Source: a virus (Duplodnaviria > Caudoviricetes). From it: DNA of 64,000 nucleotides. This document shows, one piece after another, positions 51,976 through 59,671 of this stretch; position 1 is the stretch's first letter; every line of letters begins with the position of its first letter. Where the stretch lies: positions 1 through 64,000 of IMG/VR virus record IMGVR_UViG_2932385599_000003, one strand, 5' to 3'. The position numbers and the translations under genes were made by a program. The notes under the pieces are model-generated. The model had not been told where the DNA came from. It saw only the letters and a list, made by a program, of their open reading frames with translations, and searched no databases.

Positions 51976-52269
51976 GTGACGGACGACCCGACCCCCGGAG
52001 AGATGGTCCGACGCCTGGAAGACCGCCTCACCGACGTCCGCGACGACATCCAGCAACTCGAGCGGCGCCTCGACGGCAAGGTCGACCAGCGCATCTACGA
52101 CCTCCGCCACGAAGCGCTGGCCTCTCGGGTGTCGACGCTGGAGACGCACCGGGAGAAGGACACCGAGAAGCTCGTCGCGACCCGACGCTGGCTGATCGGC
52201 GCGGTGATCGTGCCGCTGGTCGGGATCCTCCTCCCGGTCATCATCCTGCTGAGCAGGGGGACATCATGA
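51976..52269 (+). CDS. coiled-coil plus TM membrane protein (lysis cassette)
   Basis: [11 protein letters not shown]...[17 protein letters not shown]. Confidence 0.75.
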
Positions 52270-52952
52270 GGTCGACGATCCGAGCCGAGGAGCGGCGCTG
52301 GCGACGAGGGGACGTCCTGGCCATCGCCGCGGCGCTCGCCCTCGGGACCGCGTTCGCGTGGATCATCCTGTCGGTGCAGGCGCTCCGCGAAGACCTGCAC
52401 ACGGCGAACGCCGCCCGCGACGCTCTCGCCGAGCAGGTCCTGCAGCTGGGGGAGAAGCCGGTGGCGGGGGAACCCGGCGACCGGGGCGCCCCCGGCCGGA
52501 CCGTCGTCGGCCCGGCCGGAGCACAGGGTCCTCCCGGCCCAGTCGGCCCGCCGGGCCTGCCGGGCGCCTCCATCACGGGCCCGCCCGGCCCGGTCGGCCC
52601 GTCCTCGACCGTGCCGGGCCCGGCCGGGCAGGACGCCGTGGGCGAGGCCGGCCCGCCCGGCCCCGCCGGGTCCCCCGGCCCGGCGGGACCTCCAGGGCCG
52701 GCCGGACAGGACGGCACCGACGGCACCGACGGCCAGGCCGGGGCGGACGGCCGCGACGGGCAACCCCCCACGGGCTGGACCTACACCGACCCCCAGGGCA
52801 CCACCTACACCTGCACCCGCGCGCCCGACTTCGACCCGACAGCCCCCCGCTACACCTGCACCACAACCGCCCCGGCGCCCGGCCCCGGCCCGGCCCCCAG
52901 CCCCAGCGCACCCAACACCATCGCGCTCGCGCCTGAGCGCCGCCGTCTCTAG
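52266..52952 (+). CDS. membrane-anchored collagen-like protein
   Basis: N-terminal TM, Gly-X-Y repeats, C-terminal YTC...YTC. Confidence 0.8.
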
Positions 52953-52961
52953 GAGCACGCC

Positions 52962-54971
52962 GTGCCGTTCCCCGAGGGCCTGCCGACCACCCTGCTCACC
53001 TACACCGCGGTGAACCCCGCCGGCGGCGGCCCGGCCACCGGCACCGTCGAGTTCGCGCCGACCGTCCCCGCCATCACCCTCCCCGGCCACGAGACGGTGT
53101 TCACCGGCCGCGGCACCTACGCCTTCGACGCCCTCGGCCGGCTCGTCGACGGCGACCAGATCGGCGTACGGCTCCTGCCCAACGACGTGCCCGACGCCAA
53201 CCCGACCACGTGGGCGTGGCTGGTGACCGTACGCGTCACCGGCGCGCCCGCCCGCTCCTTCTACATCCGCCTGTCCACCAGCCAGCCCACCGTCGACCTG
53301 GCCGCCCTGGACCACGCCGACCCGGCCCGCGCCCAGTACGTCCTCGTGCCCGGCCCCCAGGGAGAACCCGGGCCCGCAGGCCCCGCCGGGGCTGACGGGG
53401 CGCCGGGGGAGCAGGGGCCCAAGGGCGACACCGGCGAGATGGGCCCGCAGCCGCCCCTCGGCGCGGCCGGCGCCGGCCCGACCATCGCCCTGCGCTCCGA
53501 CGACCCCACCACCACCAACCCCCGGACCCCCCTGGCCCACGCCGGCTCCCACGCCCCGGGCGGCACCGACCCGCTCACCGCAGCAGCGATCGGCGCCGAG
53601 ACCCCCGACGGCGCGCAGGCCAAGGCCGACGCCGCCCAGCAGGCCGCCATCACCGCAGCGGCGGCGGACGCCACCACCAAGGCCCAGGCCGCGCAGACCG
53701 CCGCCGTCCAAGCCGCAGCCACCGACACGACAAGCCAAGTCGCCTCCCACACCGCGGGCACCGACCCGCACAGCGACCGCGCCTGGGCCCGCGCCCGCTT
53801 CCTGCCCACGGCCACCTCGCGCCGCCGTGACCTTCCCGACCCGGCCCTCGCCGACGGCCTCCACACCGGCACCGCACCGACCATCACCACCACCCAGACC
53901 ACCACCCCCACCAGCGGCTACATCAAGTACGCGCCGCCCGGAGTCGCCCTGACCGGCACCGACGTGACCGGCCCGTTCACCTACGCCGGCGCGGGCGGCT
54001 TCCAGATCGGCACCTCCGGGGCGAACCTCTCCTACGTCAAGCCGACGTCCCGCTACCCCAACACCTACGACTCCGGCCAGTCCGTGTGGGCCCTGGAGTT
54101 CTCCACCGACGCCGCCGTCTTCCAGCTGCGCTTCCAGCACCAGACCGCCGCGATGTACCGCCTGTCCATCGACGGCCGCAAGGCCACCGAACTGATGCAA
54201 CCCGTCGGCGGCACCACGGCCGGCTCCGGGCACATGATGACCGTCGACCTCGGCAGCAGCGCCCCGCGCCGGATCCGTTTCGACTTCTCCACCGTCCCGT
54301 TCGGCGGCATCTACCTCCCCCCGTCGGCCACCATGTGGTCCTCCCCCCTGCAGGGAGGCCGCTTCATGGTCCTCGGCGACAGCATCAGCGACGGCTCCGC
54401 GCAGAACACCGGCGGCGGCGCCGGAACCTGGTTCGCGCGCGCCGCCCGGCTCCTCGGCGCGCCGGACGCCTGGGAGCAGGGCCGGGGCGGCACCGGCTAC
54501 ACCGCCGCCGGGTCCTTCGCCACGTTCGGAACGCGGGCCGCGGCCGACGTCATCGCCTGGGCCCCGACCCGGCTGGTCATCTGGGGCGGCTACAACGACA
54601 ACACCGGCTCCCAGTCGGCCATCGCGACGGCCGCCGCCGACCTGTACGTGCAGATCCGGGCCGGGCTGCCGGACTGCGAGGTGTACGTGATCGGCTGCTG
54701 GGCCCCGACCGGCTCACCGGGCGCCTCCATCACGAACACCGACACCACGCTACGCACCGCGGCGGCCGCCGCCGGGTACCCATTCATCTCCCCGGTGACG
54801 GGCTCGGTGTACGACGCGACGGGCGCCCTGGTCGTGACGCACGGGCCGTGGATCACCGCGGGGAACGCGGCCGCGTACATCGGCGGCGACGGTGTCCATC
54901 CGACGGACGCCGGCCACGTGTACCTGTCGCGCCGGATCGTCGCCGCGGTCCGGGAGCTGATGCCTGCGTGA
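52962..54971 (+). CDS. tail spike-like protein with SGNH/GDSL hydrolase domain
   Basis: Virion-anchor-like N-terminus, short collagen segment, LGDSIS, GGTGY, GGYND, DGVHP. Confidence 0.85.
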   Translation: MPFPEGLPTTLLTYTAVNPAGGGPATGTVEFAPTVPAITLPGHETVFTGRGTYAFDALGRLVDGDQIGVRLLPNDVPDANPTTWAWLVTVRVTGAPARSFYIRLSTSQPTVDLAALDHADPARAQYVLVPGPQGEPGPAGPAGADGAPGEQGPKGDTGEMGPQPPLGAAGAGPTIALRSDDPTTTNPRTPLAHAGSHAPGGTDPLTAAAIGAETPDGAQAKADAAQQAAITAAAADATTKAQAAQTAAVQAAATDTTSQVASHTAGTDPHSDRAWARARFLPTATSRRRDLPDPALADGLHTGTAPTITTTQTTTPTSGYIKYAPPGVALTGTDVTGPFTYAGAGGFQIGTSGANLSYVKPTSRYPNTYDSGQSVWALEFSTDAAVFQLRFQHQTAAMYRLSIDGRKATELMQPVGGTTAGSGHMMTVDLGSSAPRRIRFDFSTVPFGGIYLPPSATMWSSPLQGGRFMVLGDSISDGSAQNTGGGAGTWFARAARLLGAPDAWEQGRGGTGYTAAGSFATFGTRAAADVIAWAPTRLVIWGGYNDNTGSQSAIATAAADLYVQIRAGLPDCEVYVIGCWAPTGSPGASITNTDTTLRTAAAAAGYPFISPVTGSVYDATGALVVTHGPWITAGNAAAYIGGDGVHPTDAGHVYLSRRIVAAVRELMPA

Positions 54972-55203
54972 CCGCCACCCGTGTCCTATAGGAATGGGTC
55001 ACAAATAAGGGATGCAAGCAGACCTGATCAGTCACTTCCTGCATGAGGCGAGCGGCTGATCTGGCACGCGTGCGTTGCCGCCGGGCTCCCGCCGCTGCAG
55101 GGACGCCGGAACTGCCAGGATCACCTGCGGCACTTCATGAGGGGCCGGATCCCGCAGCGCTGATGAGCAGCGGGGGCGGCCGGGCTACGGCGAAGAAAGT
55201 CCC

Positions 55204-55626
55204 TCACCAGTCCTGTGAGGGCTTGTCGGCGGCGTGCTTGAAGACCTCGACGAGGTGCTCGGGGATCTGGTAGCCGAGGACCTTGCCGAAGCCGGGACCC
55301 TGGGGGATGACGACGGTCTCCATCCCGGCGGGCCACCATCCACTGGCGACGCCGCGTTCGATGGCTCGCTTGATGGGGGCGATGTGTCCGCGCAGGCTGC
55401 TGTTCTCATCGTCACGGAGGTCGTTGGCACTGACGTAGCCGCCGTTGGCGGCGGCCTCCTTGATGATGCGGCGGGCGCGGGTGGGCAGGGCGAGGTAGAG
55501 GCGTTCGGCTCGTTCCTTGGTCCAGGTGGCGTCGATCTGTACGTGGGCGGCGTGTTCGGCGAGGAGTGCGAGGAGTCGGTCCTGGAACTCAGGCGTGGCC
55601 TGCTCGACAGTGACGGTGATCTTCAT
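55204..55626 (-). CDS. hypothetical protein, possible wHTH
   Basis: WTKERAERLYLALPTRARRIIKEAAANGGYVS. Confidence 0.7.
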   Translation of the reverse strand: MKITVTVEQATPEFQDRLLALLAEHAAHVQIDATWTKERAERLYLALPTRARRIIKEAAANGGYVSANDLRDDENSSLRGHIAPIKRAIERGVASGWWPAGMETVVIPQGPGFGKVLGYQIPEHLVEVFKHAADKPSQDW

Positions 55627-55763
55627 GAGGGGCCCGTTTCAACTGACCTGGATAGAGGTGCTTCTGACGTGACGAAGGTAGCGCGCCACCACTCGTCTGT
55701 CTAGCGTCTATTCGCTTCTAGTAAACGAGTGAATGGGGTCCCGCGTGTCGGGGTCATGGGGCC

Positions 55764-55795
55764 TGGTTCACGATAAGCTCACATATCGTGAACCA
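55764..55795. other. lox-like recombination site (12-8-12)
   Basis: TGGTTCACGATA-AGCTCACA-TATCGTGAACCA; perfect arms, asymmetric 8-bp spacer, upstream of the recombinase operon. Confidence 0.8.
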
Positions 55796-55819
55796 CTCTG
55801 CTTCTACGGAAGGTGTCTC

Positions 55820-56374
55820 GTGAGCGACTTCGACGCCCGTGCGGCAGCCATCTTCGGCGTCAGTGAAGGGGCGGTGCGGTGGCCCTACGACGTCAGCGGC
55901 ATCGACCGCACCCTGCGCCACCGCGACCCTGAGGCGTTCCGATACGAACTGGCGGTGCTGACCACTAAGCGGTACACCATCGTGGAATGGGCAGAGGTGC
56001 ATGGTCTCAAGGCCAGCCGGGTCAAGTGCTGCCCCCTCTGGCTCACCCGAAAGACGTCCCGTCGTTGCCGCTTCGACAGTCCCTGCCAGTGCCGAACGGA
56101 CCCGGACCGATCCTGGCTCGATCACGACATCTACTGGCTCCGCAACGGCCATCCTGCAGTGATCACCTCAGCCCCCTATGACATCAGCCCGCAGTCCGTT
56201 CAGCGTCTCAAGTGGTGGCACGCGACGCACCGGCACTTGAAGGTAGCCACGGGGGAAGGGTGGTACGGGCACGGAACCTCACAGATCGTCATGTGGAGTA
56301 CCACCCGCATCAAGTACGTGTCGCCGGCCAAGAACATCGACCAGCCCAGCACCTTCATGCGGAGCCATGACTGA
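55820..56374 (+). CDS. hypothetical Cys/Trp-rich protein
   Basis: GGAAGG RBS and GTG; overlaps the recombinase start. Confidence 0.65.
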   Translation: MSDFDARAAAIFGVSEGAVRWPYDVSGIDRTLRHRDPEAFRYELAVLTTKRYTIVEWAEVHGLKASRVKCCPLWLTRKTSRRCRFDSPCQCRTDPDRSWLDHDIYWLRNGHPAVITSAPYDISPQSVQRLKWWHATHRHLKVATGEGWYGHGTSQIVMWSTTRIKYVSPAKNIDQPSTFMRSHD

Positions 56375-57395
56375 TCGCCTCCCAGCAGTCCGGGGCCCCC
56401 TCCTGCCGGTGGAGTTCGACCACGATCTGCAGGCCCGCCTTGCCGCGCTCGACGCCGCGTCCGACACCCACGCCCAGGAGCAGCGGCCCGACAACACGAC
56501 CCGCTCCTACGCCTCGGACTGGAAGACGTGGGCCGCGTTCTGCGCGCAGCTGCGGATCCCGCCGACGGCCGCGACGCCGGGCACGCTTCGGGCATTCGTC
56601 GACTTCCTGTGGAACCGGGAGAAGCGCGCGTACGCCACCGTCGACCGGAAGCTCGCCGGGGTGACTGTGACGCTGCGGCAGCGGTACGGCGTCGTCGTCG
56701 ACCCGGAGGCGACGAAGGCCGCGCGCGAGCTGTTGAAGGACTACCGCCGCCAGGCCGCCGAGCGGGAGGAACCGGTGCGGGGCCGCGGGAAGGCGCCAGC
56801 CATGCGCGTGGACGCCCTGCGGCGGATCGTGGAGAAGTGCTCGGACGACATCTTCGGCGTCCGGGACCGGGCGATGCTGCTGCTGGGCTTCTCGATCGCG
56901 TCCCGCCGCGCGGAGCTGGCCGGGCTGCGCCTGCGGAACGTCGTCGAGGACCCGGACGGGAACGGGCTCGTGGTGGACGTGGTGGTGTCGAAGACGGACC
57001 CGCGTACCGTGCCGGTCCCGTACGGGGCGAACCCGGCGACCTGCCCGGTGCGGGCCTGGAAGGCGTGGGTCGAGCTCTCGGGGATCAGCGACCCGGACCG
57101 GCACGCCTTCCGCCGGATCCACCACACCGGCACGGTGCAGCCGCAGGGGCTGACGCCTCAGCGGGTCGGGGACATCATCACGGCGGCCGGCGCGCGGGCC
57201 CGAGTGCCCGTGCTGTTCACGGGGCACTCGGTACGCTCCGGCATGGCGACCGAGGCGCGGCGGGCGGGTAAGGACCCGAAGGCCATCGCGCAGATTACGG
57301 GGCACAAGCCGAACAGCAGTGTGCTGCATGGGTACATGCAGATCGTCGACCGGTGGGGCGAGGACGACAATGCCCTCGTGGGGATCGGGCTGTGA
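56367..57395 (+). CDS. Cre-like tyrosine recombinase (342 aa)
   Basis: NTTRSYASDW SAM-like domain; RDRAMLLLGF..SRRAEL (R), SKTD (K), GHSVR (HxxR), TGH (H), LHGY (Y); no arm-binding domain. Confidence 0.92.
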   Translation: MTDRLPAVRGPLLPVEFDHDLQARLAALDAASDTHAQEQRPDNTTRSYASDWKTWAAFCAQLRIPPTAATPGTLRAFVDFLWNREKRAYATVDRKLAGVTVTLRQRYGVVVDPEATKAARELLKDYRRQAAEREEPVRGRGKAPAMRVDALRRIVEKCSDDIFGVRDRAMLLLGFSIASRRAELAGLRLRNVVEDPDGNGLVVDVVVSKTDPRTVPVPYGANPATCPVRAWKAWVELSGISDPDRHAFRRIHHTGTVQPQGLTPQRVGDIITAAGARARVPVLFTGHSVRSGMATEARRAGKDPKAIAQITGHKPNSSVLHGYMQIVDRWGEDDNALVGIGL

Positions 57396-57406
57396 GGATG
57401 GGCGGG

Positions 57407-58108
57407 TCACTCGTCCGGCGATCGCTGTGCCTGGAGCCTCTCCTCCATCTCCTCGCGGCGTCGCCGTAGCGCGTCCATGCGTTCTTGGCGTGTCTGAGTG
57501 ATGGACGTGTGGTTGGCGTCGGCGTAGGACTTGGCGATCTCCTTGAGGGGTTTCTCGATCTTGGTGAGAACGGCTTCGATCCGCTTCGTCGGCCGCTCAC
57601 CGATCAGCGTCTCCGACAAGACTTCGATGTCCACCGTGTAGTGCAACGGCTCCACGTCGCCTGCGGGTCCCTTGGCCTGCACGGTGAAGTTGTACGTCAT
57701 GGGCAGGCCGCTGTTCAGGCGTGCGTTCGTATCGAAGAAGAACTCCAGCTTCCGGCCGGGCGGGAGCATCGGGATGGTGCGACTCAGCGCGGTACGAAGC
57801 GCCTCCGTGGCCTGCTCGTAAGTGGATTCGATCGGAGGGTCGACGCTGATCCGCACGTCCCGAGCAAGAGTGGGGCCGACGTTCTGGATGGTCAGGTAGA
57901 GCGCGAAGGAGCCTGGTCCACCGAAGTGGATGTCTACGATGACGTACGGCTCGTTCTTCTCCCTCTCGATCTTGCGGTTCAGTTCGAGCTGCTCCTGCGC
58001 AGCCTGCGCCTGCTTGCGGGCGTACCGCAGCGCGAGGCCGGCGGTCGTCGTGGACGCGACCACGGCCAACGCCGCAAGGGAGAACGAAACCCACTGCTCC
58101 AGATCCAT
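57407..58108 (-). CDS. membrane-anchored moron protein, probably leaderless
   Basis: N-terminal TM; EPYVIVD...IQNVGPTLARDV...LPPG; TATCCT 6 nt before ATG; lower GC3. Confidence 0.8.
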   Translation of the reverse strand: MDLEQWVSFSLAALAVVASTTTAGLALRYARKQAQAAQEQLELNRKIEREKNEPYVIVDIHFGGPGSFALYLTIQNVGPTLARDVRISVDPPIESTYEQATEALRTALSRTIPMLPPGRKLEFFFDTNARLNSGLPMTYNFTVQAKGPAGDVEPLHYTVDIEVLSETLIGERPTKRIEAVLTKIEKPLKEIAKSYADANHTSITQTRQERMDALRRRREEMEERLQAQRSPDE

Positions 58109-58158
58109 CAGGGCAGGATAGGCGCCGAGGGTGGCAGGGGCGCGGGAAAGGCGAACTT

Positions 58159-59316
58159 GTGATGGCAGAGCGGTACGCCGCGGCGTCGGTGCGGCAGCTC
58201 GCCGCGGTGGTGGAGCGGATCGCGCCGCGGGACCGGGCCCGCTGGGAGGCGCGGGAGAAGGTGCCGGGCGCCGGTGGGGTGCTGATTCAGGTGTCGCGGT
58301 CGCGGGCGGACCAGCTTTGGATGGTGGTCGGCATGTTCGACCGGGCGGTGGGCCGGGAGGAGCTGCCGGGCCGGGCTGCCAGGTCGGCGGCGCAGTTGTT
58401 CACGTGGACGACGTTGCGGCCGTTCTGGGAGCTGGCGGCGGCGGGGATGCTGCGGTCGCGGGAGCAGGAGGTGGGGCGGCCGTTGCCGGTGGCTTCGCTG
58501 CGGATCGTGCGGGACTGCTTGGACATGCTGGCGCGGGTGGTGGTGCCGGGGAAGCGGGTGCGGTTGCCGGTGGTGGAGCAGCCGGCGCCGAAGCAGGTGG
58601 TGCCGGCGAGGGCTCGGACGGCGTTGTATCGGGAGTTGGTGGACATGGCGGGGGCCGGGCGGTGGGAGCGGCAGGCGGGGTTGGGGTTGTCGGTGGAGGA
58701 GCGGGCCCGGCTGCTGGCGATGGTCGCGGTGGTGCTGGATACGGGGGCGCGGTCGGGGGAGTTGGCGGCGTTGCGGATGCCGGACCTGGCGGTGGGGGAG
58801 GAGGCGGTGGCCGTGCGGCGGCGGGTGCAGCGGGGGGCGTCGCGGGTGGAGGAGATCGCCGCGGTGGCGGAGGTGCGTCCGGCGTCGGTGCACCGGGTGC
58901 TGGGGGGTCGGTGGGAGAGCGTGTCGTACGCGACGCGGCAGCGTGTTCTGGCGGCGGTTGAGCGGCTGGAGCCGGCCCGGGAGGTGGAGTGGTATCGGTT
59001 GCGGGAGGGGACGCGGGTGGCGGTGCGGCGGTGGCTGGAGGTGCGGGAGCGGGTCATCGGGGCGTTGCCGTTGGAGGGGGGTCGGCCGGGGGTGTGGGTG
59101 ACGTTGTCGGCGACGACGGCGGGCCCGCCGGGGATCACGCTGGGGCCGCGGGGGTTGCGGATGTCGTACGGGCGGGGGATGGCGGCGTTGAATCTGGCGA
59201 TGGGGGGCCGGTGGGGGTGGGAGCCGTTGCCGACGACGATGGAGCAGCTGCGGCGTGCGGTGGATGCCGAGCCGTTGGAGGAAGGGGAGGTCGCGCGGTT
59301 GCGGTTGCGTGAGTAG
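58159..59316 (+). CDS. tyrosine-recombinase-fold protein with inserted LacI-type HTH, probably catalytically inactive
   Basis: VVLDTGARSGELAAL (box I); RVEEIAAVAEVRPASVHRVLGG...ATRQRVLAAVERL; QLRR in place of HxxR; ends before any catalytic Tyr. Confidence 0.75.
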   Translation: MMAERYAAASVRQLAAVVERIAPRDRARWEAREKVPGAGGVLIQVSRSRADQLWMVVGMFDRAVGREELPGRAARSAAQLFTWTTLRPFWELAAAGMLRSREQEVGRPLPVASLRIVRDCLDMLARVVVPGKRVRLPVVEQPAPKQVVPARARTALYRELVDMAGAGRWERQAGLGLSVEERARLLAMVAVVLDTGARSGELAALRMPDLAVGEEAVAVRRRVQRGASRVEEIAAVAEVRPASVHRVLGGRWESVSYATRQRVLAAVERLEPAREVEWYRLREGTRVAVRRWLEVRERVIGALPLEGGRPGVWVTLSATTAGPPGITLGPRGLRMSYGRGMAALNLAMGGRWGWEPLPTTMEQLRRAVDAEPLEEGEVARLRLRE

Positions 59317-59476
59317 GTGTCGCTCGGGTGCGCGTCGGGGGAGGCGGTGCCTGGGGTGGGGTCGTACGGTCGGCTGGTGGGCGCGGTGACAGGACGGCGT
59401 CCGCGTGGGGCGGCTCCGTGTCTCTTTCGCACGTGCGCGGGGCCGCCACCCTGCCGGCCGGGAGGGCTCGCTGGCC

Positions 59477-59671
59477 CTATAGGCCGGGTATGGGGTCTTG
59501 GTCGACGTGGTGGCGGTCGTGGGGGATGCGGGTGTCGGGGTCGCATTCGGGGCCGAGTCGGCGGCGGCGGGATTCGGGGTCGGTCAGCTCGCGCTTGCAC
59601 TTGCGGCACCAGACGCGGGCGGGCAGGCCGGGCGGCGGTGCGGTGAGGGGCTGCTGCTCCGGGTGGGCCAT
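59477..59671 (-). CDS. DUF6011 Zn-finger small protein
   Basis: CRKCKRELTDPESRRRRLGPEC; CAGACT 6 nt before ATG. Confidence 0.8.
   Translation of the reverse strand: MAHPEQQPLTAPPPGLPARVWCRKCKRELTDPESRRRRLGPECDPDTRIPHDRHHVDQDPIPGL

Follow-up and report, generated by a model that had tools for sequence, protein, structure and literature searches.

A predicted lox-like site upstream of a Cre-type recombinase gene in a pZL12-like phage-plasmid

Introduction

The Cre recombinase of bacteriophage P1 is described as resolving head-to-tail multimers (PMC7969092). Cre homologues are also borne by plasmids, as in SCre/SloxP of Shewanella sp. ANA-3 plasmid 1 and VCre/VloxP of Vibrio plasmid p0908, and the 13-8-13 sites of these two enzymes were predicted by proximity and palindromy and then validated (Suzuki and Nakayama, PMC3082901). 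Here we analyse a similar arrangement in 64,000 nucleotides of a virus of the Caudoviricetes, positions 1 to 64,000 of IMG/VR record IMGVR_UViG_2932385599_000003. This whole stretch is called the window below. It holds a 32-bp dyad upstream of a gene for a 342-aa tyrosine recombinase, and we propose that the dyad is a lox-like recombination target of that enzyme.

Single-recombinase Xer systems offer another point of comparison. XerS/difSL, XerH/difH and archaeal XerA/dif each use a single tyrosine recombinase and one gene-adjacent site per replicon for dimer resolution. The set of Cre-type enzymes has also grown. Jelicic et al. (2023) report eight new Cre-type tyrosine site-specific recombinases (Y-SSRs), and the active targets of this type carry G(T)-A-T(G)-A beside the spacer and usually lie close to the recombinase gene (PMC10250229).

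Results

The dyad reads TGGTTCACGATA-AGCTCACA-TATCGTGAACCA, and its 12-bp arms are 100% complementary. With as many as 3 mismatches allowed, neither the window nor the 83,377-bp record as a whole has a match other than positions 55764-55795, and the window contains no other perfect dyad of 12-8-12 design. In 200 simulations under a first-order Markov model, perfect 12-8-12 dyads arose at a mean of 0.035 per window, with at least one in 7 of the simulations. The A+T content of the dyad is 56%, in a window where G+C makes up 72.5%, and the dyad lies in an intergenic gap of 193 bp (56% G+C) flanked by a minus-strand open reading frame (ORF) of 140 aa and then an ORF of 184 aa. Arm position 13 is non-complementary in this site (C and C), which makes it 12-8-12 where most of its relatives are 13-8-13.

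The end of the dyad is 24 bp from the GTG at 55820 that begins the 184-aa gene, and GGAAGG precedes this GTG. A longer version of the gene, starting at ATG 55733, would place the dyad inside the coding sequence. We dropped it because database homologues of the 184-aa protein, 24 in all, measure 175-201 aa; their length argues that the GTG start is right and the dyad non-coding. The original prediction had described a perfect 12-8-12 inverted repeat with an asymmetric spacer, just upstream of a two-gene unit ending in a recombinase. Both parts of this description are confirmed by the sequence.

By sequence and modelled fold, the enzyme behind the dyad is a Cre-type, or 'simple', tyrosine recombinase lacking an arm-binding domain. 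It matches PF00589 (Pfam, E 2e-10). When it was used to search the sequences of the Protein Data Bank (PDB) with phmmer, 17 of 17 matches were Cre or Tre, the latter being an engineered variant of Cre, and the best of them (E 3.2e-13) paired residues 11-328 with Cre 12-329. This alignment sets R180, K209, H287, R290, H313 and Y323 opposite Cre R173, K201, H289, R292, W315 and Y324. Three of these residues, R180, H287 and R290, never vary in 31 homologues whose identity goes down to 29%; for K209 and Y323 conservation is at least 90%. Identity to P1 Cre is 23% (E 2e-7, tblastn against P1 cre).

An AlphaFold2 model built on the alignment of homologues (mean predicted local distance difference test score, pLDDT, 85.5) shows five N-terminal helices at residues 19-132. 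In a Foldseek comparison of this model with the PDB, ranks 1-31 among the matches listed were all Cre or Tre, with template modelling (TM) scores of 0.65-0.78 over 305-343 aligned columns. XerA, the integron integrase IntI and lambda Int trail behind them, at E 7e-9 or weaker. The recombinase scores 29-42 bits with the Xer models of NCBIfam, against cut-offs of 220-371; for the XerC equivalog the score is 41.5 bits against 335, and for XerD 30.5 against 330. No extra N-terminal arm-binding domain is present in the Cre alignment, which covers residues 11-328, or in the model, which superposes on whole Cre chains. The alignment and superposition bear out what had been predicted for this 342-aa protein, namely an intact R-K-H-R-H-Y set and the absence of an arm-binding domain.

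For a gene-first comparison, about 6 kb was fetched on each side of recombinase homologues of 41-84% identity at 80 genome loci in Streptomyces, Actinocrinis, Catenulispora, Streptosporangiaceae, Lentzea, Saccharothrix, Nonomuraea, Nocardia and Amycolatopsis. Exactly one GATA-N8-TATC occurs at 55 of these loci, and a variant with 1-2 mismatches at 4 more. At none of the 59 site-bearing loci does the site follow the recombinase gene; it is upstream every time, and the orientation of the spacer is constant. Its distance to the first aligned codon of the recombinase ranges from overlapping or abutting up to 5.4 kb. The expectation that came with the original prediction, that the same dyad should recur upstream of homologues, is borne out by a site of the same design at 59 of 80 loci, the opposite of the outcome that would have refuted it.

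An alignment of 69 sites gave the 13-8-13 consensus C-TGAGTTnGGATA-AGGTCACA-TATCCnAACTCA-G, in which the inner GATA and TATC are invariant or nearly so. The outer arms are clade-specific while the 13-8-13 geometry is constant: TGrTTCnCGATA in Streptomyces, TGACCCAyGATA in Actinocrinis and Streptosporangiaceae, TGACTCAyGATA in Lentzea and TGrGTTnGGATA in Amycolatopsis. Among the complementary pairs of arms are TGACCCACGATA/TATCGTGGGTCA from Actinocrinis and TGACCCATGATA/TATCATGGGTCA from a Streptosporangiaceae genome. When the arms are scored like the two strands of a helix, pairing occurs in 86.4% of arm cells, compared with 21-36% when the partner is slid, and 7 of the 13 arm pairs change on both sides. 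Double-changed cells number 107, against 56.5 +/- 5.1 in shuffles, and none of 500 shuffles reached 107. Relatedness among the sites inflates such counts; the slid controls retain this relatedness and yet fail. From these comparisons the dyad appears to be under selection. Strict Watson-Crick pairs fill 721 of the 897 arm cells, with 54 G.T, 38 A.C and 84 other mismatches, a spectrum that has no clear RNA-type signature. One arm position is essentially free, being unpaired in 33 of the 69 sites.

The converse, site-first scan of a viral collection used the 16-bp core alone (the spacer with the inner GATA and TATC) and returned 19 stretches, pZL12-like elements among them. Nine of them, at a G+C fraction of 0.55 or less, have neither the dyad nor a recombinase and look like chance matches. 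The other 10 are G+C-rich and come from contigs 34-95 kb long. Seven of these reach far enough to show the downstream gene, and all 7 encode a Cre-type recombinase there; the stored DNA of the remaining 3 is too short to judge. What stands between site and recombinase varies among elements: the 184-aa gene in the window, a 79-aa gene, an 80-aa gene or nothing. In two other viral contigs the order is site, then an unrelated ORF of 79 or 80 aa, then recombinase. All of these intervening genes are co-directional. Three Streptomyces elements with diverged Cre-type recombinases also carry the core, two of them viral contigs of 83 and 34 kb (L016:2580-2595 and L019:6932-6947) and the third a genome locus (G309:C4:2493-4457). 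Their right arms are non-complementary to the left, and the L019 recombinase has W at the position of Cre W315.

Each replicon carries one site. There is one in the window record, one in pZL12, one in the complete circular plasmid NZ_CP058980 and one in each of 7 whole genomes searched (3 Amycolatopsis and 4 Streptomyces). Among 401 Streptomyces genomes, the core with up to one mismatch was found in 6, once each, and a reversed-pattern control in 0 of 401. Five of these 6 genomes were new. Two exact matches among the new ones abut recombinases of 78-82% identity, and one single-mismatch core precedes a homologue of 36% identity. Two other single-mismatch cores have no recombinase at E 1e-20 and may be chance matches. 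No second chromosomal copy of the core was found in the 401 Streptomyces genomes or in the 7 site-bearing whole genomes, and no second or half sites were found in 44 Amycolatopsis-type loci or in the whole genomes searched.

One apparent exception was rejected. Plasmid record CP109187.1 (57,176 bp; L106) has two cores and two places for the recombinase. The cores are 28,588 bp apart, exactly half the record, which is a perfect head-to-tail dimer of a 28.6-kb plasmid and is most simply explained as an assembly product.

By its gene content the window is part of a pZL12-like Streptomyces phage-plasmid. The best phage match of the recombinase is gp036, 'integrase/recombinase', of Streptomyces phage ZL12 (plasmid-phage pZL12), at 73% identity; the matches that follow among phages are two cyanophages at about 30% and, behind them, P1 Cre (23%). 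Of 23 pZL12 proteins, tblastn placed 10 in the 83,377-bp record, with their order conserved: tape measure, tail protein, recombinase, gp034, regulator, gp030, gp020, Tra3-like, ParB and SSB. The pZL12 ParA query gave no tblastn match in that record. A recombinase homologue is present in 78 plasmid records, 69 of them from Streptomyces, including complete circular plasmids of 87,893 and 86,882 bp, and 10 of 15 close Streptomyces genome loci are on contigs of 85-100 kb. Like P1, pZL12 reportedly packages DNA whose ends are largely random. About 20 bp, with no gene in them, separate the pZL12 site, TGGTTCGCGATA-AGCTCACA-TATCGCCAGGCA, from the start codon (ATG) of the recombinase downstream, and nucleotide similarity between pZL12 and the window begins only inside the recombinase gene.

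A second setting is chromosomal. In Amycolatopsis (loci L058-L102; for example L080:1453-6993) the site and a Cre-type recombinase of 41-44% identity occupy one conserved chromosomal locus, with the same upstream gene at 39 of 39 site-bearing loci and a downstream CGNR gene at 38. The slot between site and recombinase measures 0.2-5.4 kb. It encodes a protein of 460 aa whose family is unknown, joined in 15 loci by a KAP-family P-loop NTPase of 924 aa. The site of Amycolatopsis nalaikhensis is at 8.2 of 10.7 Mb, which is off the place expected for a terminus dif if the origin is near position 1.

Table 1. Coordinates of the lox-like site, the recombinase gene and neighbouring features in the window
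Feature	Position	Strand	Remarks
lox-like core site, 12-8-12	55764..55795	+	predicted binding and strand-exchange site of the adjoining recombinase
left arm TGGTTCACGATA	55764..55775	+	inner GATA invariant in 69 aligned sites
spacer AGCTCACA, asymmetric, 8 bp	55776..55783	+	predicted crossover region; first and last A invariant
right arm TATCGTGAACCA	55784..55795	+	exact complement of the left arm
Cre-type tyrosine recombinase, 342 aa	56367..57395	+	catalytic R180, K209, H287, R290, H313, Y323
Cys-rich protein, 184 aa; variable cargo gene between site and recombinase	55820..56374	+	TGA overlaps recombinase ATG (56367)
ORF of 140 aa	55204..55626	-	left flank of the intergenic gap
ORF of 233 aa	57407..58108	-	
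385-aa protein	58159..59316	+	
two tail-fibre-like genes	52266..54971	+	

Only the recombinase is constant beside the site, and in several elements it is the sole gene behind it. The window's other neighbours are found sparsely at the 59 site-bearing loci: the 140-aa ORF at 2, the 184-aa ORF at 0, the 233-aa ORF at 1, the 385-aa ORF at 5 and the regulator at 8. The product of the 140-aa gene was rejected as a binder of the dyad on this count. The 184-aa gene, whose stop codon overlaps the start codon of the recombinase gene, is probably translationally coupled to it. Its product has no match in Pfam, NCBIfam or PHROG, and its 24 homologues are all 'hypothetical' except one labelled 'C3H1-type domain-containing protein'.

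The 385-aa protein is 61% identical to pZL12 gp034 and matches PHROG 6657 (E 3e-21). Residues 182-230 weakly match the first part of the tyrosine-recombinase catalytic domain (E 0.005), a LacI-type helix-turn-helix follows directly at 231-270 (E 6e-5), and by eye neither the H-x-x-R motif nor the terminal Tyr is present. The protein may thus be a DNA-binding derivative of a recombinase that has lost activity. The 233-aa ORF, inserted between the recombinase gene and this gp034-like gene, matches PHROGs of unknown function only weakly. The two tail-fibre-like genes immediately precede the recombinase region. The first encodes a 228-aa protein with collagen-like Gly-X-Y repeats, and the second a protein of 669 aa that combines a collagen repeat with a GDSL lipase/acylhydrolase domain at its C-terminus (E 2e-13).

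To the left of the dyad, at a distance of about 30-100 bp, the stretch 55670-55740 (GGTAGCGC...CGTCTGTC...GTCTATTCGC) is common to the loci L020, L031 and L016 despite their different right-hand genes. This shared stretch is probably part of the 5' region of the 140-aa gene, which is divergent. More generally, Streptomyces elements combine left and right flanks of the site in different ways. Mosaic junctions were considered as scars of recombination at the site and rejected, since homology breaks near the spacer and not exactly there.

Discussion

We read the dyad as the recombination target, or cognate lox-like site, of the recombinase encoded at 56367-57395, and put the probability of this at about 0.65. 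By analogy with Cre/loxP, one recombinase monomer would bind each arm, reading the invariant GATA beside the spacer together with the clade-specific outer bases. Two bound sites would then synapse as a tetramer. Y323 would act as the nucleophile in a strand exchange that crosses the asymmetric 8-bp spacer by way of a Holliday intermediate. The cleavage positions, like the binding itself, are predicted from this analogy.

The best reading of the site's role, again by analogy, would be the resolution of multimers, cyclisation, or both; it is less certain than the assignment of the target. With one site per replicon, head-to-tail plasmid multimers would be resolved before partition, and a possible second use would be to cyclise terminally redundant DNA after infection. 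The site is probably autoregulatory as well, a role suggested by its constant place at the 5' end of a co-directional array ending in the recombinase gene. In that role the bound recombinase would limit its own transcription.

Several observations weigh against the assignment of the dyad as target. At 21 of the 80 homologue loci there is no recognisable site within the roughly 6 kb on each side, some of these loci ending early upstream, and two plasmid homologues of 42-46% identity (L107 and L108) have none within 4 kb. A generic dyad search in the 21 siteless loci and in L005 and L037 returned mostly G+C-rich, terminator-like hairpins, with one family-like candidate, in Nocardia (L054), that has TATA for GATA and lies 2.9 kb upstream. 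Complementarity of the right arm to the left is poor in several Streptomyces elements, namely pZL12, L030, L031, L034, L038, L016 and L019. The spacer and the inner GATA/TATC, 16 bp in all, are far more conserved than the outer arms, and the identical core stands in L016 and L019 (with one mismatch in G309) beside recombinases only 29-36% identical to that of the window. This conservation of the core is unpredicted by self-recombination alone. At the Amycolatopsis chromosomal locus, the resolution of plasmid multimers cannot be the role. Finally, the contigs and reads of four runs over 54000-59500 contain no joint or loose end at the dyad; the sole joint listed there runs from 56579 back to 54440 (21-nt side) and is unrelated to the site. 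The absence of a joint weighs neither way because a single-site resolution system would leave none.

An alternative that we consider unlikely is that the dyad is an operator or promoter only, bound by the recombinase or by a host regulator and setting transcription of the operon with no strand exchange. The strict 5' position counts against our preferred reading here, as a site that is upstream and co-oriented in 59 of 59 loci and never downstream, with co-directional cargo genes behind it, fits an operator or promoter equally well. In pZL12, reading by eye, TAAAAT stands just before the recombinase ATG and the spacer lies about 18-19 bp upstream of it, and an invariant spacer would suit a promoter element. 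However, a consensus scan of 55150-57500 found 0 sigma-70-like promoters and so none over the dyad, the bases to the right of the site give no consistent -10 element, and no other regulator co-occurs with the site. The 13-8-13 geometry, half-site centres about two helical turns apart, the GATA and the match to SloxM1 at 9 of 13 positions are all features of Cre-type sites. A pure repressor would also need none of the catalytic residues, which are invariant or nearly so in the 31 homologues down to 29% identity.

The conservation of the core leads to another proposal, which we hold to be unlikely: that the site is more than a dimer resolver and serves a clade of actinobacterial Cre-type recombinases as a shared docking point, or lox-based platform for gene exchange. 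Three observations suggest it. The spacer hardly varies between genera, even beside recombinases down to 29% identity; the site bounds, on the 5' side, a slot that may be empty or hold up to 5.4 kb; and it occurs both on phage-plasmids and at the conserved Amycolatopsis locus. Identical spacers would let elements recombine with one another, or an element with a chromosome, so that flanks would reassort and genes would be captured beside the recombinase. Exchange of this kind between elements could be the meaning both of the frozen spacer and of the one chromosomal copy found in Amycolatopsis.

It is very unlikely that the dyad is the attP of an integrating prophage, with the recombinase as an integrase that inserts the element at a chromosomal attB sharing the 8-bp core. 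The gene is annotated 'site-specific integrase' in source records, some homologues are in large chromosomal contigs, and a conserved attB would impose an ultra-conserved core. The core is nevertheless present in only 6 of 401 Streptomyces genomes, once each and beside a recombinase where checked, and the Amycolatopsis genomes have one copy and no attL/attR pair. Because no second copy was found in the genomes searched, a conserved chromosomal attB does not explain the conserved core. The close relatives are complete circular plasmids or separate contigs of about 90 kb, the recombinase has no lambda-type arm-binding domain, and the record carries ParB and Tra3-like genes. The least probable explanation, likewise very unlikely, is a hairpin of RNA or single-stranded DNA with the conserved 8 nt as its loop (for example part of a 5' leader, or a site where single strands are recombined or nicked): a covarying stem with conserved loop and closing pairs would be expected of an RNA stem-loop too, and G.T is slightly more frequent than A.C (54 against 38), but A.C nearly equals G.T, mismatches that a hairpin would not tolerate are as common (84 'other' among 897 cells), one arm position is essentially free (33 of 69 unpaired), and the architecture fits the double-stranded targets of the adjoining enzyme's family.

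If the predicted lox-like pair is active, an actinobacterial, high-G+C branch would join the small set of Cre-type systems with known targets, and the arm variants found in Streptomyces, Actinocrinis, Lentzea and Amycolatopsis would be natural material for studying how arms are read. Cre-type recombinases are wanted as orthogonal tools, including for Streptomyces engineering. An active pair would also mean that pZL12-like plasmid-phages share P1's solution to multimer resolution, and possibly to cyclisation.

Comparison with known systems

Lambda-type integrases differ from the window recombinase in having an N-terminal arm-binding domain, and in the window family no second, chromosomal copy of the core was found in the 401 Streptomyces genomes or the 7 site-bearing whole genomes. 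The XerC/XerD target dif is 11-6-11 and lies at the terminus, in contrast to the 12/13-8-12/13 sites of this family. The single-recombinase Xer systems are closer by their general description, with one recombinase and one adjacent site per replicon. The window recombinase nonetheless falls far below the Xer cut-offs, and XerA structures match it much worse than Cre does.

The sites of SCre and VCre provide a nearer likeness. SloxM1 is given as CTCGTGTCCGATA ACTGTAAT TATCGGACACGAG in PMC3082901. Its arm equals that of the window, taken as C+TGGTTCACGATA, at 9 of 13 positions, including CGATA beside the spacer, so the resemblance of CGATA to the SCre target, named in the original prediction, holds. 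The spacers are unrelated, matching at 2 of 8 positions. The systems also differ in their hosts, which are Proteobacteria for SCre and VCre, and in that the activity of those two enzymes was shown experimentally (PMC3082901), whereas that of the window pair is predicted.

The Cre-type Y-SSRs of Jelicic et al. were found by the same logic of discovery, and the GATA/TATC of the window family fits the hallmark that they give (PMC10250229). Their methods state a palindrome minimum of 13-15 bp (the legend of Figure 1 gives half-sites of 11-15 bp) and a search range of 1 kb. By the figure in the methods, these cut-offs would miss the 12-bp arms of the window and the Amycolatopsis sites 1.7-5.4 kb upstream. 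'Streptomyces' and 'Actinobacteria' have 0 occurrences in the main text of PMC10250229, the part to which our comparison extends; its supplement lists about 500 predicted pairs. The claim that the pair is new holds with a qualification. The pZL12 recombinase gene has been annotated since its deposit, while the site is undescribed in the literature found, the pZL12 paper and the supplement of PMC10250229 aside.

Cre/loxP of P1, with its relatives in P7 and D6, remains the closest model. The differences are of several kinds. The window pair is actinobacterial, from a host of about 72% G+C, with a recombinase 23% identical to Cre that has H313 where Cre has W315 (the relatives in L005 and L019 have W). 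Its arms are 12 bp long and unrelated in sequence to those of loxP save for purine-A-T-A beside the spacer, a variable cargo gene stands between site and recombinase, and the spacer of the family is nearly frozen across genera. The likenesses are those of design. Both enzymes share a two-domain fold without an arm-binding domain and the same catalytic set, and both sites have inverted-repeat arms around an asymmetric 8-bp spacer, with one site per replicon, near and upstream of the recombinase gene. The interpretation first offered, a Cre/lox-like pair on a phage-plasmid, gains support from the Cre-type sequence and fold and from the relative in pZL12. As with P1, the host element is a plasmid-prophage.

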